Shown: positions 23,251 to 58,697 of the stretch, piece by piece
Position numbering within the stretch: position 1 is the first letter of the stretch
Layout of the letters: each line of letters starts with the position of its first letter
Assembly (NCBI RefSeq): GCF_041685615.1
Contig: NZ_JAWLFK010000001.1
Span: 17,766 to 81,765, forward strand
Direction: 5' to 3'
Source of the DNA: Thioalkalivibrio sp.
GTDB taxonomy: Bacteria; Pseudomonadota; Gammaproteobacteria; Ectothiorhodospirales; Ectothiorhodospiraceae
Length of the DNA: 64,000 bases
Notes under the pieces: model-generated
Seen by the model: only the letters and a program-made list of their open reading frames with translations
What the model was told of the DNA's origin: nothing
Databases searched by the model: none
Made by a program: the position numbers and the translations under genes

Positions 23251-23438
23251 CACTCGGAGGGCACGGAGGACGCAGGGGAACGCAAGAAAGGATTCGATGC
23301 GGTGGGGCGCCCAAAACGCACCCAGGCCTGCGGCACTTCTCCGCGGGGAGGCCCAAACAACGTGCCCCGGTTCGAAATGGCACCATCCTGCGACCCCCAT
23401 GATCGAATTGCGCCGCGTGCGCGGTGCACTCTGTGGTG
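23251..23438. repeat. Degenerate periodic inverted-repeat element
   Basis: Left arm actcggagg/gcacggagg/acgcagggg; right remnant ctctgtggtg. Shares 14 identical bp with 33078-33091 and 10 with 33306-33315. Confidence 0.6.
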
Positions 23439-23495
23439 TCCCCAACAGGCATGGCCAGCGAAAGGCTGCCGGTCCCCGAAACGGGAGGGGCGGGC

Positions 23496-25112
23496 TTACA
23501 GATAGCGCGACACGCGCGGCACGGCGCTCAGCAGGTGCCGGGTGTAGTCGGCCTGCGGATTGGCCAGCACCTCGGCGGTGGTGCCAATCTCCTCCATGCG
23601 CCCGTCGTGCATGACCAGCATGCGGTCGGAGAAGTACTCCACCACACCCATGTCGTGGGTGATAAAGATCATCGCCAGACGCCGCTCTGCACGCAGTCGG
23701 CCGAGGATCTGCAGCACCTCGGCCTGTACCGACACGTCCAGAGCGCTGGTGACCTCGTCGCAGATGATCACGTCCGGATCCAGCACCAGCGCCCGCGCGA
23801 TGGCGATACGCTGGCGCTGGCCACCGGAGAACTCGTGCGGATAGCGCCACAGGGTATCTTCCGGCAACGCCACCTGATCCAGTACCCGGCCGGCCAGGGC
23901 AATCCGTTCATCCTGGTTCGCGCCGATCCCGTGCACCGCCATCGGTTCGGTGAGAAGCGTGAGCACGTTCAGGCGCGGGTTCAGCGACGAGGCCGGGTCC
24001 TGGAACACCACCTGCAAGTGGCGCCGCAGCCGGCGCAGCGGCTTGCGTGGCATACGGGTCAGCGACTCGCCGCGGTAGCAGATCTCGCCACCGGTGGGCT
24101 CGACCAGACGCAGGAGGGCCCGACCCAGCGTGGTCTTGCCGCAGCCGGACTCGCCCACCACCGCCAACACCTCGCCGTTGTCCAGTTCGAAACTGACGTC
24201 GTCCACCGCCCGTACCACGTCCACCTGACGGCGCAACAGTCCCTTCAGCACCGGGAAGTGCACCTGCAGCCCGGACACCTGCAACAACGCGTCTCGCCCC
24301 GCTCCCGGCACCGGCGGCAGCGGTGGCAGGTTCTCCGGCAGCGCCTGGATCAGCTTGCGGGTATAGGCATCCTGCGGATCGCGCAGAAGCGGCAGGCATT
24401 CCCCTTGCTCCACCAGGCGCCCCTTGCGCATCACCGCCACGCGATCGGCCACCGAGGCAACCACCCCGAAGTCGTGGGTGATCAGCAGTACCGCCATGCC
24501 GTTCTTCTCGCGCAGGTGGTCGATCAGCTTCAGGATCTCGGCCTGGATGGTCACGTCCAGCGCGGTGGTCGGCTCGTCCGCGATCAGCAGATCTGGCTCG
24601 GCAACCAGGGCCATGGCGATCATAACGCGCTGGCGCTGGCCGCCTGAGAGCTTGTGCGGAAACTCGTCGCGGCGCTGCTCGGGGTTCGGCAGCTGCACCT
24701 CGCGCAGGACCTCCAGGGTCCGCGCGGCGCGCTGCTCCGGACTCATCTGCGGGCGGTGCAGGCGCAGCACCTCCTCGATCTGGTCGCCCACGGTCAGCAC
24801 CGGGTTCAGCGAGGTCATCGGCTCCTGAAAGATCATGCCGACACGGTCGCCGCGCACGTGCTGCATCGCCGTGGACGGCAGTCCCAGCAATTCCTGTCGA
24901 CCTTCGTGCCCGGCCAGCCAGACCTCGCCCGTGGGACGCTCGAAGCCCGCATCCAGCAGGCGCATGATCGCCAGCGCAGTGATCGACTTGCCGGAGCCCG
25001 ATTCACCCACCAGGGCGAACAGTTCGCCCGCGCGGATGGTAAAGCTCGCATCCTCGACCAGCGCCTCGGCGCTGTCGCGGTGACGGATCTGCAGGTTGCG
25101 GACCTCCAGCAT
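23496..25112 (-). CDS. Peptide ABC transporter, fused double ATPase
   Basis: Two Walker A motifs ([16 protein letters not shown]), [25 protein letters not shown]; start MLEVRNL at 25112. Confidence 0.95.
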
Positions 25113-25114
25113 GA

Positions 25115-26383
25115 TCAGCGCACCCCGCCACTGGTGGCACCAGCAGCGCCGGCGGCCGGACGGGCATCGGCGTCGCGATTGGCAGTGCGCGCCGCCGAAC
25201 GGGCGTGCGGGTCGACCGCGTCGCGCAGGGCCTCGCCGATCAGGTTGTAGGCGAACACGGTCAGGAAGATCGCCCCGCCGGGAAAGGCCGCCATCCACCA
25301 GTTGAAGGTGGAGCTTTGTACGGCCTGGTTCAGCATCTGCCCCCAGGAGGGATCATCGACCAGCCCCAGGCCGAGGAACGAGAGCGTGGCCTCGGCGAGG
25401 ATCGCTGACGCCACGCCGAAGCTGGCGGCGACCAGGATCGGCGCGATCCCGTTCGGCAGCATGTGCCGGAACAGGATCGACGGCAGCGACAGCCCCGACG
25501 CGATGGCGCCCTGAACAAAGTCCTGCTGGCGCAGGCGCAGGAACTCCGCGCGCACGTAGCGCGCATAGCCCGACCACGACGTCAGGCCGATGATCAGCAT
25601 CATCAGGTACAGCGAGCGCCCGAAGAAGGCGACAAACGTCAGCAACAGGAACAGCGTCGGGATGGCCTCGAATATCTCCACCAGGCGCATCCCGATCATG
25701 TCTACGATCCCCGAGAAATAGCCCATCAAACCACCGAGGATCACGCCGATCCCCAGCGCGATTCCGGTCGCGATGAAGCCAATGGACAGCGCGATCCGCG
25801 AGGCATGGATCATGCGCGAGAGCACGTCCGCGCCGGTGTCGTCGGTACCGAACCAGTGCACCCGCTCGGGGGACTCGCGCGGAGCCTCCAGCCCGGTGTC
25901 GGCGTAGTCGCGCAGGTAGTCGCGCGGCGAATACGGGATCGGCGCGCGAATCACCGTCTGGTACTCGCCCATCCGTTCGGCCTCGCGGTACTGCTCGTGG
26001 ATCACCAACGATGGCGGCGACACCGTCTGCCAGGCGACCACGGCCAGTACCGCACCAAGCACCGCCCACAAGCCCAAGCGCCGCCACGGGCGCCCGGGCA
26101 GGCGCCAGAAGACCAACGCCAGCACCAGCATCCCGAACAGAGTCACGTCCGCCGCCGTCAGGTAGCGCAGAAACGGCATGGACCACGCGCCGTCGGCAGT
26201 CTGCAGCAGCAGCGGGTAGGACGTCGCCAGCACCGGTGCGAAGATCGCCACCAGCGTCAGCAGCGCGATCCAGGCGATCCCGAGACGCGCCCCCCAGCGC
26301 AGCAGGATCTCGCCCACCACACGCCGCACCCAGGAACGACTGCGGCGCTCCCCGGTTCCCGGATTGGATCGGGCCTCAGTCAT
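25115..26383 (-). CDS. Peptide ABC transporter permease (OppC/DppC-like)
   Basis: HWFGTDDTGADV, RHMLPN, EATLSFLGLG and NLIGEALRDAVDP motifs. Confidence 0.93.
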   Translation of the reverse strand: MTEARSNPGTGERRSRSWVRRVVGEILLRWGARLGIAWIALLTLVAIFAPVLATSYPLLLQTADGAWSMPFLRYLTAADVTLFGMLVLALVFWRLPGRPWRRLGLWAVLGAVLAVVAWQTVSPPSLVIHEQYREAERMGEYQTVIRAPIPYSPRDYLRDYADTGLEAPRESPERVHWFGTDDTGADVLSRMIHASRIALSIGFIATGIALGIGVILGGLMGYFSGIVDMIGMRLVEIFEAIPTLFLLLTFVAFFGRSLYLMMLIIGLTSWSGYARYVRAEFLRLRQQDFVQGAIASGLSLPSILFRHMLPNGIAPILVAASFGVASAILAEATLSFLGLGLVDDPSWGQMLNQAVQSSTFNWWMAAFPGGAIFLTVFAYNLIGEALRDAVDPHARSAARTANRDADARPAAGAAGATSGGVR

Positions 26384-27755
26384 AGTTCACCCGCGGGTCG
26401 ACGATGGCATAAGCAAGATCGGCCAGCAGGTAGCCAACCAGGGTGAGCATGCCGGAGATCAGGGTGATCGACAGCACCAGCTCGCGGTCGCGGGTCTGCA
26501 CCGCCTCCACCGCCAGCTTGCCCATGCCGTCGATGGAAAAGATCGCCTCCACGATGACCGAGCCCGCCAGCAGCGAGGGCAACAGGGTGGCCGACACGGT
26601 GATCAGCGGCAGCAGGGAATTGCGGAACACGTGGCGCCACAGCACGTCGTGCTCGGCCACCCCCTTGGCGCGCGCCGTGCGCGCGTAGTCCGAGGTCAGG
26701 TTCTCCAGCACCGCCGAACGCGACAGCTTGGCCAGGAACGCCAGCCCGCCGTAGGACAGGCACAGGACCGGCAGCACCAGGTGCCAGGCCCGGTCCAGCA
26801 GGAAGCCCGGCACCATGTCCCCCGGCGCCAGTCCGAGGGCCAGCGCCAGCCCGGCGCCCAGCCCCAGCGTGCCCAGGTAGAAGCCGCGCAGTACACCCCA
26901 GTCGCTGTGCGCGATCAGCCAGCCCACCGCGACCCCGATGATCACGGCCACGGCTGTACTGACCATCCCGGCCATCGCCAGATCGCGGAACATCAGCCAG
27001 CCACAGAGCGCCCCGAGCACGGCGCCGAGTCCGCCGCGAATCAGGGCGGGCAGGGCACGAGCGAGGTAGACCCCCAGGGCCGTCCCCAGAAACGGTAGGA
27101 TCAGCAGCAACGGCAGCGCCCAGACCACCTCCACCGTGGGCAGGAAGGTCATGTCCAGCGCCGCACGCTGGCTGAGCCCCCCGGTGGGGAACCACTGCCA
27201 GAACTGGTCAGAGGCAAAAAAGCCGATCAGCAAAACTCCCGCCAGCATGGTCGGAACCGACCACAGGGCCAGCAGCACCACGCCGGACTGCGAGTCGAAG
27301 GCCTGACCATGCTGGGTGGCCGCCCGCACCCCCACGGCGACCGCAACGATGTAGATCAGGGGGATGGACAAAACGTTCAGCAACAGCGTGATTGGCAGGC
27401 GTTCCGCGATCAGGTCGGTCACCGGCCGACCGTAGCGGAAGCTGGTGCCCAGATTGGGGACCTTGAAGTGGGGCCATCCCGTCAACGAGCCATCCTCGTC
27501 CTGGGCAAAACCCACCGGCGAGATATTGTTCAGCCAGCGCCCGAATTGCACCGGTGCCGGCTGATCCAGGCCATAGAGGCGGTTGTAGTACTCTTCCATC
27601 GCCTTTTGCGCCTGCGGCTCCAGGCCCTGGCCCTCCACCAGGGTCAGGGCGCTGATGCCACCGGGCGCGGCCGCCATCACGGCAAAAACCACCACGGTGA
27701 TGCCGACCAGGGTCGGCACCATCAGGATCATGCGGCGCAGGATATAGGTCAGCAT
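26376..27755 (-). CDS. Peptide ABC transporter permease (OppB/DppB-like) with TM insertion
   Basis: MLTYILRR start at 27755; LGTSFRY, ERLPIT, YARTARAKG and DLAYAIVDPR motifs. Confidence 0.93.
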   Translation of the reverse strand: MLTYILRRMILMVPTLVGITVVVFAVMAAAPGGISALTLVEGQGLEPQAQKAMEEYYNRLYGLDQPAPVQFGRWLNNISPVGFAQDEDGSLTGWPHFKVPNLGTSFRYGRPVTDLIAERLPITLLLNVLSIPLIYIVAVAVGVRAATQHGQAFDSQSGVVLLALWSVPTMLAGVLLIGFFASDQFWQWFPTGGLSQRAALDMTFLPTVEVVWALPLLLILPFLGTALGVYLARALPALIRGGLGAVLGALCGWLMFRDLAMAGMVSTAVAVIIGVAVGWLIAHSDWGVLRGFYLGTLGLGAGLALALGLAPGDMVPGFLLDRAWHLVLPVLCLSYGGLAFLAKLSRSAVLENLTSDYARTARAKGVAEHDVLWRHVFRNSLLPLITVSATLLPSLLAGSVIVEAIFSIDGMGKLAVEAVQTRDRELVLSITLISGMLTLVGYLLADLAYAIVDPRVNYD

Positions 27756-27802
27756 CGCGCGCGCCGGCCTCCCGCCCCTTCCGCTGCCATGCGCATCGCC
27801 GG

Positions 27803-29662
27803 CTACTGCCCGTAGCGCTGCTGTTCGAACGGGACGTAGATCTCCAGCGGAACCGCGCCCAGATTGAGCCCCAGCGCGGTCTGCTCCAGGTTCTGGATGC
27901 GCCGGTCGATGAAGGCCAGGGTCTGACGTCGCATCAGGAAAGTGTACGGCTGGTCCTCCAGCAGGATGCGCTCGGCCTCGCGCCACAGGTCCATGCGCGC
28001 GGACTCGTCCACCTCGCCGCGCGCCTCCTCGATGACGGCGTCCATTTCAGGGTTCTCGTAGTGGATAAAGTTGTCGCCACCGGAGACGGTCTGGCTGGAG
28101 TGGAACATCTGGTAGATATCCACCTCGACGCCACTGGTCCACCCCAGTGTGATGGCATCGAAGTCCTGGCGGCTGAGCTTTTCGAGCATCACGGACCACT
28201 CGGTCGGCTGCGGTTTCATCTCGACGCCGGCACGGGCATACAGGTCGCGCAGGAACAGCGCGATCCGGCGGGTGTCCTCGTTGTCCTGGAAGTAGGTCAG
28301 TTCGAAGGAGAACGGCTCGCCGTCCTCGTCGACCAGTACGCCATCACGGTTGCGCTCGCGATAGCCGGCCTCGGCCAGCAGTTCCGTGGCGCGCTCGACG
28401 TCATACGGGATCGGCTCGAGATCGGGATTATGCTGCTCGCTGCGTGGGGAGAACGGCGAGATCGCCCGTTCGGCATAGCCCAGCATAACCTCCTCGATCA
28501 GCCGGTCGATATCGGTCAGGTAGCTCATCGCCTTGCGTACCCGCGGGTCGGCGAATCGCGTCGGCTCGTCATCGCGCTGCTGGTTCCAGGCGATGAAGGA
28601 ATACCCCGCCGTGGGGCTCATGTATTCGTGGGTATCCGCGCGCTCGCGCAGCGCCTCGTCGTCGCGCAGCCGGGCATATTCGCGCGGTCGTGCGCTGTAG
28701 ACATCGATGTCCTGGTTGCGGAAAGTTGTCAGACGCGCGCTGTCGTTCTGGATCACGCGCCACACCAGCCGGTCCAGCGGCGGCTCCACCGGCCCCCAGT
28801 ACCGTGGGTTGCGCTCCAGCTCGATGCGTCCGGCGTCCGGGGTCCAGCCAGACGGATCCTCCAGACGGTACGGCCCGGAGCCGAGCAGGATCCCCCGCGA
28901 CTCGTTGAAGGTCTCGGGCTCTTCCAGGTAGCGCTCGTAAAAGTGCTTCGGCAGCACGTCCAGGCCACCGGCAACTCGCATGGCATCGAAGTACGGCTCC
29001 TCGAAGGTGAACCGGACCGTGCGTTCATCCGTCGCCTCGACCGCCTCGACCTTTTCCAGGAAGGCACGCGCCCGCGGGACCGCGATGGCATCGGTCATCA
29101 GGAAATCGAAGGTGAACTCGATGTCCTCGGCCGTCAGCGGCTCACCGTCGGAGAACTGAAGCCCCGGGCGCAGCTGGAAGGTCAGTTCCGTGCCGCTATC
29201 GTCGAATTCCCAGGACTCGGCCAGCAGCCCCTGCCACTCCAGCGACTCCGGGTCGCGCACCACCAGTGACTCGAGCACGTAATTCTGCACCTCGGACGCG
29301 TAAGCGTCGGAGGAGACATACGGCGTGATCGTGTCCAGCCCCGTGCCAAAGGCCTGCACCAGCCAGTCGCCTTCGGCGTAGTCCTCCTGCTCCACCGACC
29401 GGGCCGCGCGGCGGAAGGCCGATGGCACCTCGTCGACCCGCGGGGCCTGATCTGCCTCCATGCCGGCAAAGCGCCCGGACGCGAGATCCGATTCCAGCCC
29501 CTGCAGGCTGCGCCGCAGCGCCCGCAAGTCCCGGGCCTGCTCGCTCATGGTGCTTTGCATGCCGGCCATGCGCTGCCACTGGCGGTCGATCTGGACCATC
29601 ACCAGCAACAGCAGGATGCCCAGCACGATCAGGGTCACGATCCAACCAAAATGACGACTCAC
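27803..29662 (-). CDS. Peptide ABC transporter substrate-binding protein (family 5) with N-terminal TM and coiled coil
   Basis: GTG start with GGAGG RBS; GLLAESWE, FSDGEPLTAEDIEF, GSGPY and FADPRVRKA motifs. Confidence 0.88.
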   Translation of the reverse strand: MSRHFGWIVTLIVLGILLLLVMVQIDRQWQRMAGMQSTMSEQARDLRALRRSLQGLESDLASGRFAGMEADQAPRVDEVPSAFRRAARSVEQEDYAEGDWLVQAFGTGLDTITPYVSSDAYASEVQNYVLESLVVRDPESLEWQGLLAESWEFDDSGTELTFQLRPGLQFSDGEPLTAEDIEFTFDFLMTDAIAVPRARAFLEKVEAVEATDERTVRFTFEEPYFDAMRVAGGLDVLPKHFYERYLEEPETFNESRGILLGSGPYRLEDPSGWTPDAGRIELERNPRYWGPVEPPLDRLVWRVIQNDSARLTTFRNQDIDVYSARPREYARLRDDEALRERADTHEYMSPTAGYSFIAWNQQRDDEPTRFADPRVRKAMSYLTDIDRLIEEVMLGYAERAISPFSPRSEQHNPDLEPIPYDVERATELLAEAGYRERNRDGVLVDEDGEPFSFELTYFQDNEDTRRIALFLRDLYARAGVEMKPQPTEWSVMLEKLSRQDFDAITLGWTSGVEVDIYQMFHSSQTVSGGDNFIHYENPEMDAVIEEARGEVDESARMDLWREAERILLEDQPYTFLMRRQTLAFIDRRIQNLEQTALGLNLGAVPLEIYVPFEQQRYGQ

Positions 29663-29925
29663 AGGGCCTCCGGCTTGTTGCTGTGGCGGTCCGGCCATCC
29701 CGTTGCGGGACCCCGGGCGAGCGATCACGGGGACCGCGGGTATCGGGCAGACACCGGCACTATAGCAAGCCACTTGCTCCGGCTCACCGGGTGCTGGCCG
29801 CGCTTGCGGCACATCGGTATGATCCGGAGACAGTCGCGTCCGCCCCCCGGTTCCGCCGGCGGTCGGACGCCGTCGCGACGACCCGCCCGGGTGCGTCGGC
29901 ACGGATCTGAGCCAAGGAGTTTCAA

Positions 29926-30726
29926 ATGGGTTTTCTGAAGGGCAAGCGCGCACTCATCGTCGGCGTTGCCAGTAACCGTTCCATCGCCTACGGCATTGCC
30001 GCGGCCATGCATCGCGAGGGCGCCGAGCTCGCCTTTACCTATCAGAACGAGCGCCTGCGCGATCGCGTTGAAAAGCTGGTCGCGGATTTCGATTCCGACA
30101 TCCTCGTGCCCTGCAACGTCGAAGACGACCGCGAGATCGAGCAGGTCTTCGAACACCTGGACGACTACTGGGACGGGATCGACATCCTGGTGCACTCGGT
30201 GGCCTTCGCGCCCAAGGAGCAGTTGGAGGGCGACTTCCTCGACAACATGACCCGCGACGGATTCCGCATCGCGCATGACGTCAGCTCCTACAGCCTCGCG
30301 GCTCTGGCCAAGGCCGGACGCGGCATGATGAAGGATCGCGACGCTTCCATCCTGACCCTCAGCTATCTGGGAGCCGAACGCTCCATGCCCAACTACAACG
30401 TGATGGGTCTGGCCAAGGCGAGCCTGGAGGCCAACGTGCGCTACCTCGCGTACAACCTGGGGCCGGAGGGCACCCGCGTGAACGCGATCTCCGCCGGCCC
30501 GATCCGCACCCTCGCGGCCTCCGGAATCGGCGATTTCAAGCGCATCCTGGACCACGTCGAGGCCAACGCCCCGCTGCGGCGAAACGTGACCACCGAGCAG
30601 GTTGGCAACGCCGGCGCCTTCCTCTGCTCCGATCTCGCAGCCGGGATCACCGGCGAGGTGATGTACGTGGACTCCGGCTACAACACGGTCGGCCTGGGCG
30701 CGGCCGAGATTGGTCTCGACAAGTAG
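29926..30726 (+). CDS. fabI: Enoyl-ACP reductase
   Basis: [25 protein letters not shown] and [16 protein letters not shown] motifs. Confidence 0.98.
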
Positions 30727-30770
30727 CTCGCCCGCTTCCAGCCTTCATGTCGCCTCTTCAGGCGGCAGGA

Positions 30771-30813
30771 ATGGAAAAGCCCGGCCCGCGTGAGCGAAGC
30801 CGGGCTTTTCCAT
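30771..30813. terminator. Bidirectional terminator between convergent fabI and ppiD
   Basis: atggaaaagcccggc...gccgggcttttccat perfect 15-bp stem. Confidence 0.85.
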
Positions 30814-30886
30814 GTCTGCGGGCCGCAACCCTGCCTCGGCCAGTCAAGCCCGTTCTGTATCACGGACGACCCGGCAAGGGCGTTCA

Positions 30887-31000
30887 ACCACCGGGTGCAC
30901 CGAGGAAGCGGAGGATCTGCACGGCTTCATAGCCGGCGGGATCCGGTGAGACCCGCCCCGTGCGGGCAAACGCGATCGACTTTCTCCGTGTCCGTCGTGG
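30887..31000. repeat. Degenerate periodic inverted-repeat element
   Basis: Left accaccggg/tgcaccgag/gaagcggag (9-bp period). Right ttctccgtgtcc at 30982-30993 is identical to 33295-33306. Confidence 0.55.
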
Positions 31001-31037
31001 CGGAACGTCCTATGACCTCCCGGCACGCCGATTCAGG

Positions 31038-32927: not shown

Positions 32928-33020
32928 GATGGTCTCTGCTCGTTCCGCCGTGGAGAGGGAATCGGGAATCAGCCGCTGATGGTAGCAGGCACGCCGGCGC
33001 GCGTCTGCGCTTGAGGGCCG

Positions 33021-33037
33021 ACCACGAAGGCACGAAG
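33021..33037 (+). repeat. Lone periodic arm accacgaaggcacgaag
   Basis: Two cacgaag units 8 bp apart, matching the arm type at 51720. Confidence 0.55.
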
Positions 33038-33060
33038 AAGGTCAGCACGATCAAGCGTTA

Positions 33061-33318
33061 TTGCACCACAGAGGACACGGAGGGCACGGAGAAAGACAAT
33101 ACCGAACCACGTGAAGGCCAGAGAATCGCGTCTTTGGAAGGGATCGAAGTTGCGCCGAGGGCCCAGCCACGCGTTAGCGCGGTCCGCGCCAGAATCATGG
33201 CATGGGCCCCGTCGATTCGACTGCGAGGGAGAACGCGCCCCGATTCGATTCCCGGGGCTAAGCGCCCTGCCCGCCCGAACCAAATTCCTTTCCCTTCTCC
33301 GTGTCCTCTGTGGTGCAA
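33061..33318. repeat. Element with perfect 22-bp terminal inverted repeats (MITE/REP-like)
   Basis: ttgcaccacagaggacacggag (33061-33082) and ctccgtgtcctctgtggtgcaa (33297-33318). Confidence 0.85.
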
Positions 33319-33362
33319 ACGCCCTTGACCTTCTTCCGCCCTGCATCGCAATAGCCAAAAAA

Positions 33363-33396: not shown

Positions 33397-33473
33397 TGGC
33401 GGAGCGGACGGGACTCGAACCCGCGACCCCCGGCGTGACAGGCCGGTATTCTAACCAGCTGAACTACCGCTCC
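33397..33473 (-). tRNA. tRNA-Asp(GTC)
   Basis: GGAGCGGTAGTTCAGCTGGTTAGAATACCGGCCTGTCACGCCGG...GGTTCGAGTCCCGTCCGCTCCGCCA, 77 nt. Confidence 0.97.
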
Positions 33474-33509
33474 GTATTGATGCAGTGCAACCAGAGTCGG
33501 GGTTGCACT

Positions 33510-33585
33510 TGGTGGGTGCTGACGGGTTCGAACCGCCGACATTCGCCTTGTAAGGGCGACGCTCTACCAACTGAGCTAAGCACCC
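33510..33585 (-). tRNA. tRNA-Val(TAC)
   Basis: GGGTGCTTAGCTCAGTTGGTAGAGCGTCGCCCTTACAAGGCG...GGTTCGAACCCGTCAGCACCCACCA, 76 nt. Confidence 0.97.
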
Positions 33586-40128: not shown

Positions 40129-40215
40129 TGGTGCGAAAGGAGAGACTCGAACTCTCACGGGTTTTACCCCACTGGGACCTAAACCCAGCGCGTCTACCAG
40201 TTCCGCCACTTTCGC
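40129..40215 (-). tRNA. tRNA-Leu(TAG)
   Basis: GCGAAAGTGGCGGAACTGGTAGACGCGCTGGGTTTAGGTCCCAG...CTTTCGCACCA, 87 nt with a long variable arm. Confidence 0.96.
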
Positions 40216-40335
40216 GATCTTGCAGATAACTCTTGTTGCGTTCGCTCAGCCGCGCATTCTAGCGTGTTCCCCGCCGCCAAACACAAAAGGCCCGCATGAA
40301 CGGGCCCATGTGCCGGCGCGGGGACCGGAGAATAA

Positions 40336-40411
40336 TGGTGGGTCGTGTAGGATTCGAACCTACGACCAATTGGTTAAAAGCCAACTGCTCTACCAACTGA
40401 GCTAACGACCC
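40336..40411 (-). tRNA. tRNA-Lys(TTT)
   Basis: GGGTCGTTAGCTCAGTTGGTAGAGCAGTTGGCTTTTAACCAA...CGACCCACCA, 76 nt. Confidence 0.97.
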
Positions 40412-49883: not shown

Positions 49884-50777
49884 TCAGGTGCCCGGGAGAT
49901 CACGGGCGTGGACCAGGAACACCCCGTGCCCGCCAGCCTCGAACTCCAGCCAGATCAGCGGCAGATCCGGGAAGGCCGCCTCCACCGCTGGCTGGCTGTT
50001 GCCGACCTCGACGATCAACACACCGTCGTCGGTCAGATGCTCGCGGGCGCCGGCCAGGATGCGCCGCACGATATCCAGACCGTCACCGCCGGCGGCCAGC
50101 CCCAGTGGCGGCTCGTGGCGGTATTCATCCGGTAGCGCCGCCATGTCCCCGGCATCGACATACGGCGGATTGGACACGATCAGCTCGTAGCGATCCCCCG
50201 GCTCCATCCCGTCGAACACGTCGGACTGCAGCGCGCTCACCCGATCGCCCACCTGGTGGCGTTCGATGTTGATATGCGCCACGGCCAATGCATCCGTCGA
50301 GATATCCGCCAGATCCACCCGCGCCTGCGGCATGGCCAGGGCCATCGCGATCCCGATGCACCCGCCCCCGGTGCACAGATCCAGCGCGCGGGTCACGGCA
50401 TCGGGGTCGACCCAGGGCTCGAAGCCCGCGGCAATCAGTTCCGCCAGCGGCGAGCGCGGCACCAGTACGCGCTCGTCGACATAGAACGGCAAGCCAGCGA
50501 ACCAGGCCTCGCGGGTCAGGTAAGCGGCGGGCTTGCGCGTCGCGACACGCTCGCGCAACACGGCCACCACGCGCGTGCGCTCGGCCTCGCTCAGGCGCGA
50601 TTCCCACCACGACTCGGGCAGGTCCAGCGGCAGATGCAGGGTGTGCAGCACCAGCCAGGCCGCCTCGTCGAAGGCATTGTCGGTCCCGTGCCCGAAGCTC
50701 AGGCCGGCCCCGCGAAACTGGCTGGCGCCGAAGCGAATGAAGTCGCGCAGGGTGCGCAATCCGGTGGTCGAATCCAT
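49884..50777 (-). CDS. prmB: L3 glutamine N5-methyltransferase
   Basis: [34 protein letters not shown] and EVGNS motifs. Confidence 0.96.
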
Positions 50778-50854
50778 GCCCGGTCTTTCCGTTGCGTGCG
50801 AGGGCGGTCATCATACCGCCTCGGCCTGTACGCCACCCACCCCTCGGACACCGC

Positions 50855-51709
50855 ATGAGCAAGATCGACCCCTGGCTGGCACGCCTGTCGCACCTGCTGC
50901 CCCAACACGCCCTTTCACGCGTCGTGCACCGGCTGGCGCGCATCGAGTCGCCGCGGCTGCAACCGCTGCTGCACGCCTTCGTGCGCCGCTTCGGCCTGAA
51001 CATGAACGAGGCCGCCCAGCCGGACCTGACCGCCTATTCCAGCTTCAACGCCCTGTTCACTCGCGCCCTGCGCGACGAGGCGCGGCCACTGGAGGGGGAT
51101 GCGAATACCCTGGTCAGCCCGGCCGATTCCCGGGTCAGCGCCGCCGGGCGCATCGAGGCCGGACAGATCTTCCAGGCCAAGGGGCATCACTACACGGTCC
51201 GGGAACTGCTTGGCGGGGAAGGCGAACTCGCGGAGGCCTTCCGCCACGGGCACTTCGTGACCCTCTACCTGTCACCGCGCCACTACCACCGACTGCACAT
51301 GCCGCTGACGGGAACCCTGACCCACATGATCCATGTGCCGGGGCGGCTGTTCTCGGTTTCCCCGCGCATCGTGCGTCACGTGCCGCGGCTGTACGCCCGC
51401 AACGAACGGGTTATCGCCTGCTTCGACACACCGATAGGGCCGACGGCCATGGCGCTGATCGGGGCCCAGAACGTCGGTTCCATCGAGACCGTCTGGGCCG
51501 GAGAGGTCACCCCGCCGCATGGCCGCGAGATCAGCGTGAGCGAGTATCCCGACCGCGACGTCACCCTGGAACGCGGCGCGGAGATGGGGCGCTTCAACCT
51601 GGGCTCGTCAGTCGTGCTGCTGTTGCCGAAACATCCGCTGCAGCTCGCGGACCACCTGACGCCGGAGACCGAGGTCCAGGTCCGCTCGGCCCTGGGGCAG
51701 TTTTACTGA
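50855..51709 (+). CDS. psd: Phosphatidylserine decarboxylase proenzyme
   Basis: FNALFTR, YLSPRHYHRLHMP, RNERV and GRFNLGSS (pyruvoyl site) motifs. Confidence 0.95.
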   Translation: MSKIDPWLARLSHLLPQHALSRVVHRLARIESPRLQPLLHAFVRRFGLNMNEAAQPDLTAYSSFNALFTRALRDEARPLEGDANTLVSPADSRVSAAGRIEAGQIFQAKGHHYTVRELLGGEGELAEAFRHGHFVTLYLSPRHYHRLHMPLTGTLTHMIHVPGRLFSVSPRIVRHVPRLYARNERVIACFDTPIGPTAMALIGAQNVGSIETVWAGEVTPPHGREISVSEYPDRDVTLERGAEMGRFNLGSSVVLLLPKHPLQLADHLTPETEVQVRSALGQFY

Positions 51710-51713
51710 GATT

Positions 51714-51793
51714 TCACGACGAAGCACACGAAGCCACGAAGGAATCCGCCATTGATCCGGCCCTTCTTCGTGGCTTCGTGTGCTTCGAGGTGA
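51714..51793. repeat. Periodic palindromic element between convergent psd and DUF3581
   Basis: Perfect 22-bp IR cgaagcacacgaagccacgaag (51720-51741) / cttcgtggcttcgtgtgcttcg (51766-51787), 24-bp spacer. Confidence 0.88.
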
Positions 51794-51803
51794 TTCCGGA
51801 CGC

Positions 51804-52559
51804 TCACGCGTGGGCACGGGTCCCGGCGGGCTGGTTGTAGTAAGCGGCCTTCCAGCTTTCGTAGTCGGCGACCAGCTGTTCGACGTCGGCGGCATCGAAC
51901 GGGCGCAGGCCGCTCAGGACCAGGTGCTTGCTGCCGTCGGCGACCACGGAATGGTCGATCACCAGTTCGTAGTCCAGGCGGATCTCGCCACGCTTGCCGC
52001 TGACCGTCATCACCGCATCCTTCAGGCGCGGCTCCGGCACCCCGGCGCTGGCCGCCAGCGGCTCGGGCAGGCGAAAGCCCATGCGCTCGTACATCACCAG
52101 CGGGCGCTTCGGGTTCACCATCACGCCGTGTTCCTCCATCAGCGGCACCAGCACGTGCGGAAAGTTCTGACCGGAAAAGCCGACATAGCTGCGGATCAGC
52201 GACTCGATCGCATTCGGCTCGTCGATCACGGGACCGGAGCGTTCCACCTCGATCACGCTCTTGCCGCCTTCGTCGGTGATGGCGAAGGCCTCACCCGGGT
52301 TGTCCGGGAACACCAGCGGCACGTTGCCGCCCACCATGCCGGTAAAGCGGAAGAGCATGTTGGCGCTGGCTCCGTAGGTATCCAGCACGAGGGCGAACAG
52401 GAGATCGCCCGGGACGCAGAAACGCCGGTTGTCGGCGTCGTGGATGGGATTGAAATCGCCGGCGAGCGTCTTGGCAAAGTCGCTCCCCTGCTCCGGGGTC
52501 ACGACCAGCTGACCGTCGCGAAGGCGGTAGAAGTCCTCAAGGAAGCTTTTGTCGGTCAC
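51804..52559 (-). CDS. DUF3581-like protein, probable hot-dog fold
   Basis: GTG start; FAKTLAGDFNPIHDADNRRFCVPGDLLF and NPKRPLVMYE motifs. Confidence 0.8.
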   Translation of the reverse strand: MTDKSFLEDFYRLRDGQLVVTPEQGSDFAKTLAGDFNPIHDADNRRFCVPGDLLFALVLDTYGASANMLFRFTGMVGGNVPLVFPDNPGEAFAITDEGGKSVIEVERSGPVIDEPNAIESLIRSYVGFSGQNFPHVLVPLMEEHGVMVNPKRPLVMYERMGFRLPEPLAASAGVPEPRLKDAVMTVSGKRGEIRLDYELVIDHSVVADGSKHLVLSGLRPFDAADVEQLVADYESWKAAYYNQPAGTRAHA

Positions 52560-52602
52560 GCGGTTTCCCCGAAATCGTCTTGCTGCATGGTTTTTCGCAC
52601 CA

Positions 52603-54489
52603 CTATAGCCCGAAATGTCCCTCGATGGCCTTGATAAAGGCATCGCCGTAGCGTTCCAGCTTGTGCTGCCCCACCCCGGAGATCCCGGCCATCTCGTCGC
52701 GGGTGCGCGGGGCCGCGGCCACCATCTCCAGCAACGTGGCATCACTGAAGATCACGTAGGGCGGCACCCCCTGGTCGCGCGCGAGGTCCGTGCGCAGCCC
52801 GCGCAGGGCCTCCCACAGAGCGCGATCCTCGCTGTCCATTGCCGCGACGCTGCGGGCGGTGTCGCGGCGGGCCGGACGGGCCGCGCGCGCCTCACGTCCC
52901 GGGCGGGCCACCTCCTCGCGCAGGTGGATCGTCTCCTCGCCCCGCAGCACCGGGCGACAGTCCGGGTCCAGGCGGAGTCCGCCGTAGCCCTCGTCATCCA
53001 GGCGCAGCAGCCCGCGTGCGAGCAACTGCCGGACCACGCCGCGCCACTGCGCCTTGTCCAGCTCCTTGCCGATACCGAAGGTGCTCAGGCGATCGTGGCC
53101 CAGGCGGGTCAGGCGCTCGCTCGCCGAGCCGCGCAGCACGTCGATCACATGCCCGGCCCCGAAGCGCTCGCCAGTTCGATAGACGCACGACAGCAGCTTC
53201 TGCACCGGCACGCTGGCGTCCCAGGTCGCCGGTGGTTCCATGCAGTTGTCGCAGGTCCCGCAGGGCCGAGGCATGCGCTCGTCGAAGTAGGCGAGAAGCG
53301 CCTGGCGCCGGCAGCTGGTGATCTCGCAGAACCCGAGCATCGCCTCCAGCTTCTGCTGCTCGACCCGCTGGCGCTCGGCCCCGGCCTGCGAGCCCTCCAG
53401 CATCTGGCGCAGGGTCACGACATCCTGTAGCCCGTAGACCATCCAGGCATTCGCCGGCAGACCGTCGCGGCCGGCGCGGCCGGTCTCCTGGTAGTACCCC
53501 TCCAGACTCTTGGGCAGGTTCAGGTGGGCGACAAAGCGCACGTTCGGCTTGTCGATGCCCATTCCGAAGGCGATGGTGGCGACCATCACCACCCCCTCCT
53601 CGCGCAGAAAGCGAGTCTGATTCGCCGCGCGCGTGGCGGCCGGCAGTCCAGCGTGATAGGGGAGCGCGGGAACGCCCTGTTCCGCCAGCCACTCGGCCAC
53701 CGCCTCGACCTTCTTGCGCGACAGGCAGTAGACAATCCCCGCCTCGCCGGCGTGTTCCTCGCGGATAAAGCGCAGCAGTCGATCGCGCGCGGAACCACCC
53801 CGGCCACCGTCCGCCTGGGCGATGCGGTAGCGGATGTTGGGCCGGTCGAAGGAACTGACGAAGGCGCGCGCCTCGTCGAGGCACAGTCGTTCTCGGATCT
53901 CCTGGCGGGTCGGGCCGTCGGCGGTCGCGGTCAGTGCCAGGCGCGGCACCTGCGGGAAACGCTCGGCCAGCACCGCCAGCTGGCTGTATTCCGGGCGGAA
54001 GTCATGCCCCCACTGCGAGACGCAGTGCGCCTCGTCGATCGCGAACAGGGCCAGGTCGATGCCCTCCAGGCGCTCCAGCATGCCCGGGGCGAAAAGGCGC
54101 TCCGGCGACATGTACAGCAGGTCCAGTTCACCGGCGTGCAGGGCCGCCAGAACGGAACGCGCCACGTCCGCCTTCTGGCCGGAGTCCAGGCTGGCCGCGG
54201 CCACCCCGTTTTGGCGTAGGGCGGCCACCTGATCCTGCATCAGCGCGATCAGCGGCGAAATCACGATGCCGCAGCCGGGTCGAGCAAGCGCCGGGATCTG
54301 GTAGCAAAGTGACTTGCCGCCGCCGGTGGGCATCAGCACCACCGCGTCGCCGCCCGCGGTCACATGCTCGACGATCGCCTGCTGCTGACCGCGAAATTCC
54401 GTATAGCCGAAGGTCTCGCGCAGGATCTCCAGTGGCGCCGCCGGAGCGCTTCCCTGCGCCTCTCCAACTGCAAGACCCGAGGGTTCCAA
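52603..54489 (-). CDS. recQ: DNA helicase RecQ (start codon uncertain)
   Basis: [37 protein letters not shown], Zn/RQC and HRDC domains. Confidence 0.96.
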
Positions 54490-54656
54490 GGGACGTACTC
54501 CAGACAGTAAGACAAGCGACGAACACTGCCGAATGCCAGCCATCGCTGCAAGCAACCGGCGCCACAATCGCCGCGTACACAACACCCGGGATGCATTTCC
54601 CCGTGGGTATCCATCGCGATAAGCTTCCACCCGAATCCTCTTTCCCAGGACGACCG

Positions 54657-55118
54657 ATGCCGACAACTGCCCGCCTCCTGACTGTTGCCTGCCTGGCCCT
54701 GCTCGCACTGACCGCCTGCTCCGAAACCCCGGACCCGGACACCGGGGACCCGGCCGAGCAGGAAACCAGCGGCGAGTCGAACGCGGCTTCCGGTTCCACG
54801 GCTGAGCTCGACTACAGCCTGCCGCCGGACGACTTCTCCGCCGACCCCGAGGCCGGACGTTCACTGTTCCGGTCCAACTGCATGCAGTGCCACGGGGAAG
54901 AGGCCCGCGGTACCGACCAGGGGCCGCCGCTGATCCACCGCATCTACGAGCCCTCGCACCATCCGGACATCACCTTCCATCGCGCGGCGGCTCTGGGCGT
55001 GAACCAACACCACTGGGAATTCGGCGACATGCCGCCGGTGGCGGGCATCACCGGCGAGGAGACCGCCCACATCATCGCCTGGATCCGCCAGGAACAGCGC
55101 GCCGTCGGCATCGACTGA
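54657..55118 (+). CDS. Lipoprotein monoheme cytochrome c
   Basis: Lipobox LTAC, CMQCH, and [10 protein letters not shown] with the putative axial Met. Confidence 0.9.
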
Positions 55119-55123
55119 GCTCG

Positions 55124-56122
55124 ATGCCCTCCAGTTCCAAGGCCGCAATCCGCCAGGCCGTTCACGCGTACCTCGACGCCTGGCTGCGCAAGCGCGACCT
55201 CGCGGGCGTACTCGGATGGCACGCGCCGCATGTCAGTGGCTTCGGAACTGGAGGCGACGAATCGGCCTTCACGCCCGAGGATGTGGAGCGCGTCGTCGGC
55301 CGCGACATCGAACAGGTCCCGGACCCCTTCGACTACGAGATACACCGCGAAGACGTCCGCCTCGTCACGGACGAGGTCGCCCTGGTGATGCTGGTATTCG
55401 ACATGCTGCTTGACACCCGCGGACAACGGGTCCGACTGAACGGACTGCGGACCAGCCTCTTGCTGCACCGGACCGACGACAGCTGGCGTCTGGAACACCT
55501 GCACGGCTCCTTCCCCGCCAGCGTCCACGGTGCCGACGAGCCGTACCCGGTCAAGGAACTGGAGGAACGCGCGCATGCGCTCGAACGCCTGGTCCAGGAA
55601 CGAACACACTCCCTGGAGGCGGCCCAGAGCCGCCTGGAACGTCTCGCCACCACCGACCCGCTGACGGGTCTCCACAACCGCATGAAGGCGAGCGAGTTGC
55701 TGGCCGACGAAATCCGGCGGGCCGAGCGTCACGGGGGCCTGCTTGGCGTGATCATGATGGATCTGGACCACTTCAAGCCGATTAACGACACCCTGGGGCA
55801 CGGTCGCGGCGATACTGTGCTCACCGAGGTCGGGCGCCTGATCGCCGCGCGCATCCGCGAGACCGACCGGGCCGCCCGCTGGGGTGGCGAGGAATTCCTC
55901 ATCCTGTGCCCGCAGGGCGATGCCGCGGCCACGAGCCATCTGGCCGAGGATCTGCGCCGCGCCCTTGGGGTCACCGACTTCGACACCGGACACGCGCTGA
56001 CCGCCAGCTTCGGCGTGGCCCAACTGAAGCCGGGCGAGACAGGGGAGGCCCTGGTCGATCGCGCGGACCGGGCCCTGTACGCTGCCAAGAATGCCGGGCG
56101 CAACCAGGTACAAGCCGCGTGA
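55124..56122 (+). CDS. Diguanylate cyclase with N-terminal SnoaL/NTF2-like domain
   Basis: NTF2-like N-terminus ending WRLEHLHGSFP, a coiled coil, DLDHFKPINDTLGH, RETD I-site and GGEEF. Confidence 0.92.
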   Translation: MPSSSKAAIRQAVHAYLDAWLRKRDLAGVLGWHAPHVSGFGTGGDESAFTPEDVERVVGRDIEQVPDPFDYEIHREDVRLVTDEVALVMLVFDMLLDTRGQRVRLNGLRTSLLLHRTDDSWRLEHLHGSFPASVHGADEPYPVKELEERAHALERLVQERTHSLEAAQSRLERLATTDPLTGLHNRMKASELLADEIRRAERHGGLLGVIMMDLDHFKPINDTLGHGRGDTVLTEVGRLIAARIRETDRAARWGGEEFLILCPQGDAAATSHLAEDLRRALGVTDFDTGHALTASFGVAQLKPGETGEALVDRADRALYAAKNAGRNQVQAA

Positions 56123-56198
56123 AATCAATCCCACCCCTCGGTGACCCGTCAGTGGATCTTTGGGACGGGTCCATCGAACCGGCATAAGGGGTGTTGCC

Positions 56199-56597
56199 AT
56201 GTTGACACGGAGACTGGCCCTCGGCGCCCTTCTGGGCCTTCTGGCCCTGCCCGCCCCAGCCGACGAGGTCGATATCCTGGAGGCCCGGCTGCACGCCAGC
56301 GGCCCGAACCAGTGGCGGGTGTCCGTCACCGTGGAACACCCGGACAGCGGCTGGGACCACTATGCCGATGCCTGGCGCGTGCTTGACGCCGATGGGAACG
56401 TCCTCGGCGAGCGCATCCTGCACCACCCGCACGTAAACGAACAGCCGTTCACGCGCAGCCTGCGCCGTTTGTCCATCCCCGAGGGAACCCGTTTCGTGCA
56501 GATCGAGGCGCGTTGCTCTCAGGACGACTGGGGCCACCGGCGCCTGCAGGTCGACCTGGAACAGGACCGGGGCGAGGCCTACCGCATCCGCCGCTGA
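56199..56597 (+). CDS. Secreted His-rich hypothetical protein
   Basis: Signal peptide MLTRRLALGALL...APA; HPDSGWDHYADAW and LHHPHVNEQPFTRSL motifs. Confidence 0.82.
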   Translation: MLTRRLALGALLGLLALPAPADEVDILEARLHASGPNQWRVSVTVEHPDSGWDHYADAWRVLDADGNVLGERILHHPHVNEQPFTRSLRRLSIPEGTRFVQIEARCSQDDWGHRRLQVDLEQDRGEAYRIRR

Positions 56598-56700
56598 CCT
56601 TCCCGGACGCCGGGGAGGAGCCGCTACTGAATGCGCGCCCATGTGCGAACCGTGCCGCGCCGCTCTAAAGTAAGCCGCCTACCCAGCCCCGGATTTCCCC

Positions 56701-58527
56701 ATGCGCGGTCATTCCAGCGTGCACGATGCGCCCGACGAGGCGATCAACTGGCGCATCGTTCGCTCCCTGTTCCCCTATCTCGCGGAATTCCGCGGGCGGC
56801 TGTTCCTCGCCCTCGGCCTGATGGGCCTGGCCAAGCTGGCGACCGTGCTGGTGCCGCTAGCACTGAAGTACATCGTCGACCACTTCGAGGATTCCGGCAC
56901 CGACGCGCTGGTCACGGTCCCGGTGGCACTGGTGGTTGCCTACGGCCTGCTGCGATTTGGCGGAACCCTGTTCGGCGAGCTGCGCGATGCCGTCTTTGTA
57001 CGCGTGGCCGAGCGCGCCATGCGGCGCGCGGCGCTGCGCGTGTTCGAACACCTGCACCGGCTGGAACTGAGCTTTCATCTGGCGCGCGAGACTGGCGGCC
57101 TGGCGCGAGACATCGAGCGCGGAACGAGCGGCATCAGCTTCCTGCTGCGCTTCATGGTGTTCAACATCCTGCCGACGATCATCGAAATCGCACTGGTCGC
57201 GGTCATCCTGCTGGTCGCGGTGGGCCCCGTGTTCACCCTGACGGTCATCATCGCGGTGGCGGCCTACATCGCCTGGTCGGTGTGGATCACCGAGTGGCGC
57301 ACCCGCTTCGTGCGCGAGGCCAACCAGCGCGACAACGAGTCCAACACCCGCGCGATCGACAGCCTGCTGAACTACGAGACGGTCAAGTACTTCGGCAACG
57401 AGGGCTTCGAGGCCCGGCGCTACGACGAGGGCCTGGCCACCTGGGAACAGGCCCGAACCAAGAATGTCCTGTCGCTGGTGCTGCTGAACTCCGGACAGGC
57501 CCTGATCATCGCCGGGACGATCACCGTGATGATGCTGCTGGCCGCCAGCCGCGTGGCCTCGGGGCAGATGTCACTGGGCGACCTGGTCATGGTCAACGCC
57601 TACATGATCCAGCTGTTCATGCCGCTGAACTTCCTTGGCTTCGTCTATCGCGAGATCCGCCAGTCACTGGCGAACATCGAGCGTCTGTTCGCCCTGCTGG
57701 GAAAACCCGTGCAGGTCGAGGACCGGCCGGACGCACCGGATCTCGAGGTCACCGGCGGGCATGTGCGCTTCGAACAGGTCGCCTTCCACTACCAGCCGGA
57801 GCGCTTGATCCTCGCGGACGTATCGCTCGAAATCCCCGCCGGGCACAAGCTCGCGGTGGTTGGGCCCAGCGGCGCCGGCAAGTCCACGCTCGCGCGTTTG
57901 CTGTTCCGCTTCTTTGATGTAACCGACGGGCGCATCACCATCGACGGCCAGGACATCCGCGAGGTGACCCAGCAGAGCCTGCGCGGCGCAATCGGCGTGG
58001 TCCCCCAGGACACCGTCCTGTTCAACGCCAGCATTCGCTACAACATCGCCTACGGCGATCCCGGGGCCTCCGAGGAAGCCATCCGGCGCGCCGTCCATCT
58101 CGCGCATCTGGACGACTTCATCCAGCGCCTGCCCGATGGCCTGAACACGGTGGTCGGCGAACGCGGGCTCAAGGTCTCCGGCGGCGAGAAGCAGCGCATC
58201 GCCATCGCCCGCATGCTGCTGAAGGACCCGCCGATCCTGGTGTTCGACGAGGCCACCTCGTCACTGGACTCGGGCTCGGAGAAGGCGATCCTGCAGGCCC
58301 TGAACGAAGTCTCGGCGCGGCGCACCACGCTGGTCATCGCGCATCGGCTGTCGACCGTGAAGGATGCCGAGCAGATCGTGGTGCTGGACCAGGGCCGCGT
58401 AGTCGAACGCGGCACCCACCGCGAACTCCTCGCCCGCGACGGCGCCTACGCCCGTCTGTGGCAGCACCAACAGGAACACGAACCCACCACCGCCGACCCG
58501 GACCCAACGCCGGGGCCCAAGTGTTGA
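56701..58527 (+). CDS. ABCB-type fused permease/ATPase (Atm1/HMT1-like)
   Basis: DSLLNYETVKYF, GPSGAGKS, VSGGEKQRIAIAR and DEATSSLD motifs. Confidence 0.95.
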   Translation: MRGHSSVHDAPDEAINWRIVRSLFPYLAEFRGRLFLALGLMGLAKLATVLVPLALKYIVDHFEDSGTDALVTVPVALVVAYGLLRFGGTLFGELRDAVFVRVAERAMRRAALRVFEHLHRLELSFHLARETGGLARDIERGTSGISFLLRFMVFNILPTIIEIALVAVILLVAVGPVFTLTVIIAVAAYIAWSVWITEWRTRFVREANQRDNESNTRAIDSLLNYETVKYFGNEGFEARRYDEGLATWEQARTKNVLSLVLLNSGQALIIAGTITVMMLLAASRVASGQMSLGDLVMVNAYMIQLFMPLNFLGFVYREIRQSLANIERLFALLGKPVQVEDRPDAPDLEVTGGHVRFEQVAFHYQPERLILADVSLEIPAGHKLAVVGPSGAGKSTLARLLFRFFDVTDGRITIDGQDIREVTQQSLRGAIGVVPQDTVLFNASIRYNIAYGDPGASEEAIRRAVHLAHLDDFIQRLPDGLNTVVGERGLKVSGGEKQRIAIARMLLKDPPILVFDEATSSLDSGSEKAILQALNEVSARRTTLVIAHRLSTVKDAEQIVVLDQGRVVERGTHRELLARDGAYARLWQHQQEHEPTTADPDPTPGPKC

Positions 58528-58571
58528 TTCACTCCGAAGCGCGCACAGCAGGGCCAGGTCAACAGCAATTC

Positions 58572-58697
58572 ACAGGAAGATGGGAAGGCTGGAAGAAAAA
58601 ATAATTGGATAAAAGAGCGTGAAATCGTCCGCGATTCGCTCGAGCGCCAGCTGTTCTTCCGATCTTCCCGTCTTCCTGTCCGCTTTTGACTTTTGAC
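58572..58697. repeat. Periodic inverted-repeat element plus 7-bp tandem
   Basis: acaggaagatgggaaggctggaagaa (58572-58597) versus ttcttccgatcttcccgtcttcctgt (58654-58679), 22/26 complementary; followed by ttttgac x2. Confidence 0.8.

Follow-up and report, generated by a model that had tools for sequence, protein, structure and literature searches.

Small extragenic repeats shape bacterial genomes and few of them have a known partner enzyme, the main example being the REP-associated tyrosine transposase (RAYT) of REPINs, the hairpin-forming doublets of repetitive extragenic palindromic (REP) sequences. In E. coli, REP sequences protect or process mRNA 3' ends. Miniature inverted-repeat transposable elements (MITEs), such as Correia of Neisseria and the enterobacterial repetitive intergenic consensus (ERIC), measure 80-400 bp, carry terminal inverted repeats, are intergenic and co-transcribed with their neighbours, and differ between strains in having filled or empty sites. 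A REP is defined as an imperfect palindrome of 20-40 nt with a conserved GTAG or CGTC end (PMC3733652). Another kind of repeat was described in Geobacter metallireducens by Aklujkar et al. (2009), whose class 2 sites consist of TCTCCGTS[Y] units, three in tandem per site, arranged as 21 pairs in inverted orientation with a variable distance between partners (PMC2700814, Additional file 8); four of these sites are combined with a tandem-octamer class, GTTGCTYN, and the pairs were proposed to be sites of a regulator of the IHF/HU type (PMC2700814). Here a dispersed family of intergenic inverted repeats built from tandem 8-9-nt units is analysed in a Thioalkalivibrio metagenome-assembled genome (MAG), designated G000, with emphasis on five sites in a stretch of 64,000 nt, called the window (contig C92, positions 17766-81765).

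The family is real, belongs to one lineage, lies at gene 3' ends, and has been gained as whole units of arms plus loop with nested turnover. The same arms are physically linked to a GxxExxY nuclease gene (TIGR04256/PF13366) in relatives from the genus and in a distant phylum. It is probable that the five sites are gene-less, MITE- or REPIN-like non-autonomous derivatives of such PD-(D/E)XK nuclease cassettes. These derivatives would favour hairpin tips near gene 3' ends for insertion and would persist only in the arm dialect read by the resident nuclease. The genomes compared are denoted by G-numbers and include a genus sample of 35; the G000 assembly (2.40 Mb, 110 contigs, 66.5% G+C) is 94% complete.

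Repeat arms and the nuclease gene they enclose

Reading of all the loci revealed that the elements are modular nested hairpins composed of a head, tandem units, a loop and a mirror arm. A module starts with a head of ~17 nt, GGTCAAGGGCGnTTCAC (about GGTCAAGGGCGnTT(C/A)AC), followed by 2-5 tandem units of 8-9 nt in a single dialect. Each unit consists of an invariant core of 5-7 nt and a free spacer of 1-3 nt. The dialects are:

dialect A: CACGAAG plus a 1-2-nt spacer
dialect A2: CAC(A/G)GAG (CACRGAG) plus a 2-nt spacer
dialect B: (A)CAGGAAG, then GGGAAG/GGAAG units, with 3-nt spacers

An element has between one and three modules in symmetrical nesting around a loop of 24-220 nt; dialect A takes the outermost position, and A2 or B the inner ones. 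The purine-rich arm facing a mirror pyrimidine-rich arm, described in the original prediction, was seen across the loci, and the purine arm is invariably 5', whichever the strand. A variable interior had also been predicted; this holds for the length of the loops and for their sequence, which is unique within G000 apart from a second REP family described below, and it does not hold for the head motif and a short inner stem, which are conserved. This stem, AGGGATTGG / CCAATCCCT, accompanies a conserved GGTTTTTGGGGTG-like stretch located just inside the B arms. In B arms, the identity between the two arms of one element was 0.68, versus 0.72 between elements, and covariation of the spacers, as a sign of a selected stem, was not found in this CAGGAAG type. 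Conserved cores next to uncompensated spacers are less readily explained by selection for a perfect stem than by a protein that reads the cores.

Tandem-unit patterns occurred 18-54 times in G000, compared with 0-9 times in five fifth-order Markov simulations, and a control pattern read backwards had 0 matches. The motif frequency is therefore far above chance genome-wide, and an origin by chance or low complexity was ruled out by these simulations and this control. The G000 seeds group into 52 loci, ~40 of them intergenic; eleven lone seeds inside coding sequence are probably chance matches. The copies are scattered singly and form no arrays. Several intergenic loci fall at contig ends, as expected of repeats, which break assemblies. 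Contig ends in or beside an arm were recorded at C22:5600, C41:78, C42:103, C68:43775, C69:12191, C88:2336, C94:93 and C96:36591. Since many G000 contigs end in or near arms, the family is a main cause of assembly breaks and its true copy number exceeds the count.

The arm patterns are present in ~11 of the 35 genus genomes and nearly absent (roughly 0) from the remainder. The B pattern was found 29-51 times in G000, G003, G005, G012, G042 and G044; the rest of the genus genomes had 0-13 matches each, and 16 genomes from other families had 0. Patterns A and A2 are confined to that one sub-clade too. Among named records, matches were obtained in Thioalkalivibrio, for instance in strains ALJ16, ALE14 and AKL19.

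Position was evaluated for the 33 G000 loci with both neighbours called, using a crude GC3-based ORF (open reading frame) filter whose calls may be wrong for single junctions: 19 are convergent, 12 tandem and 2 divergent. The convergent excess is significant (19/33 versus 20% of intergenic gaps of at least 100 nt; p = 2.6e-6), and divergent gaps are depleted. The elements begin a few to ~30 nt past stop codons, that is, at gene 3' ends.

A PF13366 (GxxExxY) gene is found as a single copy in G002, G003, G005, G012, G042, G043 and G044, in truncated form in G010, and with another arm type in G011, G013 and G022. The proteins match TIGR04256 at 1.5e-44. The arms around the gene are:

CACGAAG (A): G005 and G043, and the truncated gene of G010
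CACRGAG (A2): G002 and G044
CAGGAAG (B): G003, G012 and G042
CACGGAT: G011, G013 and G022

Wherever the gene occurs in the element-bearing clade, also as the truncated copy of G010, it occupies one conserved spot in an exopolysaccharide (EPS)/PEP-CTERM cluster. At the reference locus of this cluster (L156), the genes flanking the cassette end ...NWLGPKISRSLG and begin MDDLLYLVHRIPWPPNKGDKIRSHH..., respectively. The same arrangement was observed in Polyangiales MAGs, where the gene lies between AACAGGAAGgcgGGAAGgcgGGAAG and its mirror at locus L164 and between TTCACAGGGAG-type arms in others, and where gene-less hairpins with identical arms follow stop codons. In the cassette at L164:1462-1857 the GxxExxY frame stays open across the 5' arm back to an upstream ATG, and at L166, L167 and L169 (~1480-1925) this frame runs on through the 3' arm before its stop. 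The purine units GGAAG/GGGAG of these Polyangiales resemble ribosome-binding sites. Two further arrangements were seen in Acidobacteria and Proteobacteria MAGs (L064:5340-5420, L073:6465-6540, L048:7110-7260). An Acidobacteria MAG displays the reverse order (pyrimidine arm, TGTGA, short spacer, TCACA, purine arm), which may represent two abutting element ends, and a Proteobacteria MAG contains a near-perfect hairpin with seven GGAAGGACA nonamers per arm.

Several kinds of enclosed gene had been suggested beforehand. The GxxExxY nuclease was indeed found between the arms, in the seven relatives listed and in Polyangiales, and neither a RAYT nor a four-helix-bundle gene was. No RAYT is associated with these arms: G000 has no PF01797 match, and the RAYT-like genes of relatives are flanked by another repeat. 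The four-helix-bundle family PF05635 is absent from G000 and from 34 of the 35 genus genomes, and was likewise rejected as the partner.

The GxxExxY protein has ~125 aa and its catalytic E...D...ExK residues are conserved. The structure model is confident (predicted local distance difference test, pLDDT, 91.5), and a fold search with it returned, as weak nearest solved folds, the PD-(D/E)XK enzymes Cas4, lambda exonuclease, splicing endonuclease and the nuclease domains of restriction enzymes. A sequence search of the PDB found no solved homologue. The function of PF13366 was listed as "Unknown" in a 2012 survey of PD-(D/E)XK proteins (PMC3424549), and no paper tying a GxxExxY gene to such arms was found in an incomplete literature search. 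Across phyla the proteins group mainly by taxon, which makes protein identity uninformative with regard to arm dialect.

The dialect around the gene was compared with the dialects present genome-wide. The B pattern requires three units and the A and A2 patterns two, and the counts below compare fairly only between genomes within one pattern:

G005, gene arms A: 214 A pairs, 103 A2 pairs, B 29
G043, gene arms A: 191 A pairs, 156 A2 pairs, B 13
G002, gene arms A2: 80 A pairs, 61 A2 pairs, B 2
G044, gene arms A2: 25 A pairs, 74 A2 pairs, B 51
G042, gene arms B: 58 A pairs, 58 A2 pairs, B 50
G012, gene arms B: 35 A pairs, 29 A2 pairs, B 39
G003, gene arms B: 37 A pairs, 34 A2 pairs, B 51
G000, gene not found: 18 A pairs, 23 A2 pairs, B 34

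The two genomes with A cassettes have 214 and 191 CACGAAG pairs, versus 25-80 in the other cassette genomes. At 28 orthologous sites, intact paired A arms were found 17 times in G005, 2 times in G012 and once in G000; these sites were picked from G000, so that G005 against G012 is the unbiased comparison (Fisher p = 4e-5). The profile of G000 resembles those of the B-cassette genomes, including its closest relative G012. In six of the seven genomes, all but G002, the arms enclosing the gene follow the dialect that is kept intact genome-wide, a suggestive result given that kinship is uncorrected.

The five sites and their turnover

All six intervals named in the original prediction carry inverted repeats, as confirmed by reading of the sequence. 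They make up five sites, the interval 33021-33037 being the outer arm of the composite at site 3. No strand is assigned to the sites:

site 1, 23251..23438: decayed CACRGAG-type hairpin between mutM (+) and a convergent gene; arms at ~23251-23276 and 23416-23438
site 2, 30873..31017: decayed CACRGAG-type element at a convergent junction, just downstream of the conserved fabI terminator hairpin
site 3, 33019..33350: nested composite between a tRNA terminator and the start of ppiD
site 3, outer CACGAAG arm: 33021-33041, with a decayed partner at ~33333-33350
site 3, inner CACRGAG element: 33061-33320, with arms 33061-33093 and 33294-33320
site 4, 51712..51794: CACGAAG-only hairpin, three units per arm, 24-nt loop; profile E = 5e-9 and 1e-7
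site 5, 58530..58725: CAGGAAG/GGGAAG-type element at a convergent junction, core 58572-58697, head GGTCAACAGCAATTCAC; profile E = 1.6e-11

The repeat finder returned three inverted pairs in the window:

site 3, 33051-33082 / 33297-33328: 32 nt, 88% complementary
site 4, 51714-51741 / 51766-51793: 28 nt, 93% complementary
site 5, 58572-58597 / 58654-58679: 26 nt, 85% complementary

Folding as single-stranded DNA gave z = -7.7 for site 3 (33015-33345), -32.9 kcal/mol and z = -10.8 for site 4 (51710-51797), and z = -6.6 for site 5 (58530-58725), and 0 shuffles were as good in each case. The blocks said to link distant copies are both exact: 14 bp are common to 23255 and 33078, and 12 bp to 30982 and 33295. 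The predicted location also held, four of the five sites being convergent junctions and the remaining one, site 3, lying between tRNA genes and the start of ppiD. Site 4 occupies nearly all of a 94-nt gap between two convergent stop codons. Scans of the window with the arm-model profiles found no copies beyond the five sites. Rfam at the gathering score gave no match at the sites; its only matches in the window were a cspA thermoregulator-like 5' untranslated region and four tRNA genes (1418-1800 (-), 33400-33585 (-) and 40132-40411 (-)). Relative to a tRNA pair and its terminator, site 3 is immediately downstream.

It had been asked whether the sites behave only as ordinary terminators. A terminator scan of 51500-59000 found nothing at sites 4 and 5, where a U-tract is absent, and sites 2 and 3 each adjoin a canonical terminator that is conserved in its own right, also in species without the element. 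On these grounds an intrinsic (Rho-independent) terminator was rejected as the identity of the elements.

Sites 1 and 2 are decayed copies, with weak profile matches and with arms that are intact in the orthologues of two relatives. At site 1 the CACRGAG arm model matched weakly at 23255-23276 (+) and 23438-23424 (-); the orthologues in G012, G005, G002 and G010 contain the same element with better arms, and that of G005 is a nested, larger version. Alignment of site 2 showed intact arms, CCACAGAGTGCACAGAGGACACGGAG ... CTCCGTGGGCTCCGTCTCCTCCGTGG, in G012 and G005, and a degraded copy with a deletion of one unit (9 nt) in G000. G000, G012 and G005 carry this element (~190 nt); eight other species lack it as a whole and retain the terminator. 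At site 3, the outer arms are common to six species according to the orthologue alignment, and the inner module is CACRGAG in G000, G005 and G002, CAGGAAG in G012 and G003, and another one in G010; the locus is empty in G008, G015 and G014. In G012, the orthologue of site 4 combines decayed outer arms with a nested CAGGAAG module placed exactly at the apex. The element at site 5 is enclosed by decayed outer CACGAAG arms. It is almost identical in G012, and in G005 the outer CACGAAG arms are perfect, with three units, around an unalignable loop. Both filled and empty alleles, which the original prediction had proposed to compare, thus exist at sites 2 and 3, the empty ones in outgroup species. 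The presence or absence of whole elements at orthologous sites indicates that they are acquired DNA.

For a wider comparison, the joined 120-nt flanks of the 33 G000 loci were searched in the two closest good genomes. All the recovered orthologous sites were occupied (31/31 in G012 and 30/30 in G005). Of the 31 interiors compared between G000 and G012, 19 share 90-98% identity, a level indicative of vertical descent, and 12 could not be aligned (41-61% identity), with flanks of 78-91% identity. Shared outer A arms hold different inner modules depending on the species, namely A2, B or a REP of the other family, and unit-sized indels of 8-9 nt were seen in the alignments. These alignments are most simply read as the outcome of insertions that occurred repeatedly and independently, each at the tip of a hairpin already in place. 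Copying of loops between elements by gene conversion was rejected, as loops are unique in G000 with the exception of the second REP family. Viral contigs contained just isolated single matches without inverted partners and gave no sign of a phage vector.

The second REP-like family is unrelated and resides in the loops of tandem-armed hairpins. Its cores are about GTCATCCCGGCCGYAGCGGAGCGGAGAGCCGGGATC and GATGCGATTCGCTYYGCTCATCACATCCTAC, and it was located in G000 at C87:9163-9317, C92:10700-10918 (just upstream of the window) and C94:126-191, and in G012 at L188-L191 and L201. In the G012 orthologue of C73:10352, a RAYT-like ORF flanked by the GATGCGATTCGCTYYGCTCATCACATCCTAC-type repeat stands in place of the element. 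It seems that other mobile repeats use the hairpin loops as landing sites.

Evaluation of the possible explanations

The original prediction of a non-autonomous mobile or REP-like family tied to cassette gain and loss is supported by the copy excess, the filled and empty sites and the gene-enclosing copies. For the derivation from nuclease cassettes, the following mechanism can be proposed. Each end of a cassette is a terminal inverted repeat composed of head and tandem units, and the nuclease, probably as a multimer, would read the repeated cores at both ends. Dialect tracking suggests that it could mobilise or homogenise gene-less copies in trans. Extruded hairpin or cruciform tips would be its preferred targets, and dialects that the resident nuclease does not read would decay. 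If the elements affect host RNA at all, for instance by providing a 3' hairpin or a processing site, this would be a side effect.

Several observations weigh against this derivation. Recent insertions relative to G012 and G005 were not found, all the orthologous sites being occupied, and neither were near-identical recent copies. No target-site duplication or precise excision footprint was definable: the element ends that were inspected showed no consistent duplication, the empty sites are too diverged to compare, and exact junctions and target duplications are unreadable because every G012 and G005 site is occupied. The G000 assembly yielded neither a PF13366 gene nor, by blastn or tblastn, the EPS/PEP-CTERM host locus; its copies either depend on a gene located in the 5-6% of the genome that was not assembled, or are orphans, and the two decayed sites of the window fit the latter. 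A literature search found no biochemical activity reported for any GxxExxY protein. The loops of 84 element regions, searched as six-frame translations with a hidden Markov model, had no match to the nuclease at E <= 10; with loops that are unique and without nuclease remnant, these results do not point to a simple origin by internal deletion. In addition, the gene-arm association in the genus may be a single ancestral event, as these genomes are related and kinship is uncorrected. With respect to dialects, G002 is an exception, having a CACRGAG-armed cassette yet more CACGAAG pairs, and G005, with its A cassette, has 29 CAGGAAG arms.

Host-selected RNA or DNA hairpins are another possible explanation. 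The elements would then serve in the protection or processing of mRNA 3' ends, as two-way terminators or as RNase III sites, and the nuclease gene would be incidental. The strong bias to gene 3' ends and convergent junctions, the very stable hairpins and the occupancy of sites across three species agree with such a role. It is nevertheless unlikely, since there is no U-tract and the terminator scan was empty at sites 4 and 5, the canonical terminators beside sites 2 and 3 are the sole feature in element-less species, about two thirds of the genus live without the family, the spacers do not covary, and the intact dialect follows the arms around the lineage's nuclease gene. The invariant cores with their fixed 8-9-nt period and free spacers, paired at variable distance as in PMC2700814, would also suit non-mobile binding sites of an architectural or global regulatory protein, as proposed for the class 2 sites of G. 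metallireducens (IHF/HU). That proposal appears improbable for Thioalkalivibrio, where the elements come after genes and not at promoters, are absent from most of the genus despite the same housekeeping genes, and undergo whole-unit presence/absence and nested insertions, the GxxExxY nuclease being the only protein physically linked to the arms.

Movement by a known type of transposase was considered as well, either as classical REPs or REPINs moved by a RAYT (Y1 transposase) or as MITEs of an ordinary insertion sequence (IS). The elements are extragenic, palindromic, dispersed and restricted to one lineage, and RAYT-like genes do exist in relatives. This explanation is nonetheless very improbable: a PF01797 match is lacking in G000 (the survey covered Y1 and not DDE transposases), the repeat that flanks the RAYT-like genes of G012 is another one, often found inside the loops of these elements, and the arms are tandem unit arrays instead of 20-40-nt REPs with a GTAG/CGTC tag. 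The derivation from nuclease cassettes gives the unusual repeat build, with its multi-dialect tandem-unit arms and tip-nested copies, a concrete candidate partner in a widespread nuclease family whose function is unknown. Culturable Thioalkalivibrio strains of differing dialect offer a natural experiment. Furthermore, these repeats break assemblies and mark hot spots where other mobile repeats land.

A more general proposal is put forward tentatively and might well be wrong: GxxExxY nucleases and tandem-armed hairpins could constitute another system of the REPIN-RAYT type, independent of the known one. In it, arrays of 8-9-nt units would be read by a PD-(D/E)XK nuclease that is inherited vertically and present as a single copy, and this nuclease would sustain a genome-wide population of hairpins in its own dialect. 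The tips of existing hairpins at gene 3' ends would receive the new copies, and older dialects would decay as the specificity drifts from CACGAAG through CACRGAG to CAGGAAG. If true, this would reveal a new mechanism of hairpin DNA mobilisation and would account for many tandem repeats of short period in bacterial intergenic regions that have had no explanation so far, among them the Geobacter 'regulator sites'.

Comparison with known systems

The ORF-bearing intervening sequence of 23S rRNA (S23p/PF05635) is similar in that long inverted arms able to pair as a stem enclose either a small gene or nothing. It differs from this family in its protein, PF05635 being absent here, and in its location, since the present copies are intergenic and not in rRNA. 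Correia and ERIC MITEs are similar in size, terminal inverted repeats, intergenic position, co-transcription with neighbours and filled/empty sites. They differ in that no target-site duplication could be defined here and in that the loops are unique instead of conserved among copies. We know of no cognate transposase-bearing IS for these elements.

REPINs and their RAYTs are alike in several respects: they comprise short, non-autonomous, hairpin-forming extragenic repeats that are lineage-specific, a single-copy gene is flanked by the same repeats, and the repeat populations look maintained only alongside the cognate gene (PMC3116915, PMC2817692). In contrast, the gene found here encodes a ~125-aa PD-(D/E)XK nuclease and not a Y1 (HUH) transposase, and the arms are tandem arrays of 8-9-nt units in copies that nest, while a REP is a single palindrome of 20-40 nt. 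The arms start with TTCAC-CAC... and bear no GTAG/CGTC tag, which sets them apart from REPs as defined.

The class 2 sites of Geobacter belong to a different phylum, and the paper describes them without a gene link, mobility or presence/absence (PMC2700814); the head motif and the CACGAAG and CAGGAAG dialects are not described there. At the level of the unit the agreement is close. Reverse-complemented, TCTCCGTS[Y] gives the CACGGAGA unit of the present family, and in that orientation the published consensus is matched by the CACRGAG arms of site 3 (33061-33093 and 33294-33320). The combination of class 2 sites with GTTGCTYN octamers also resembles the nesting observed in Thioalkalivibrio. Based on this likeness, the annotation of the same unit as a regulator-binding site in Geobacter may need revisiting.

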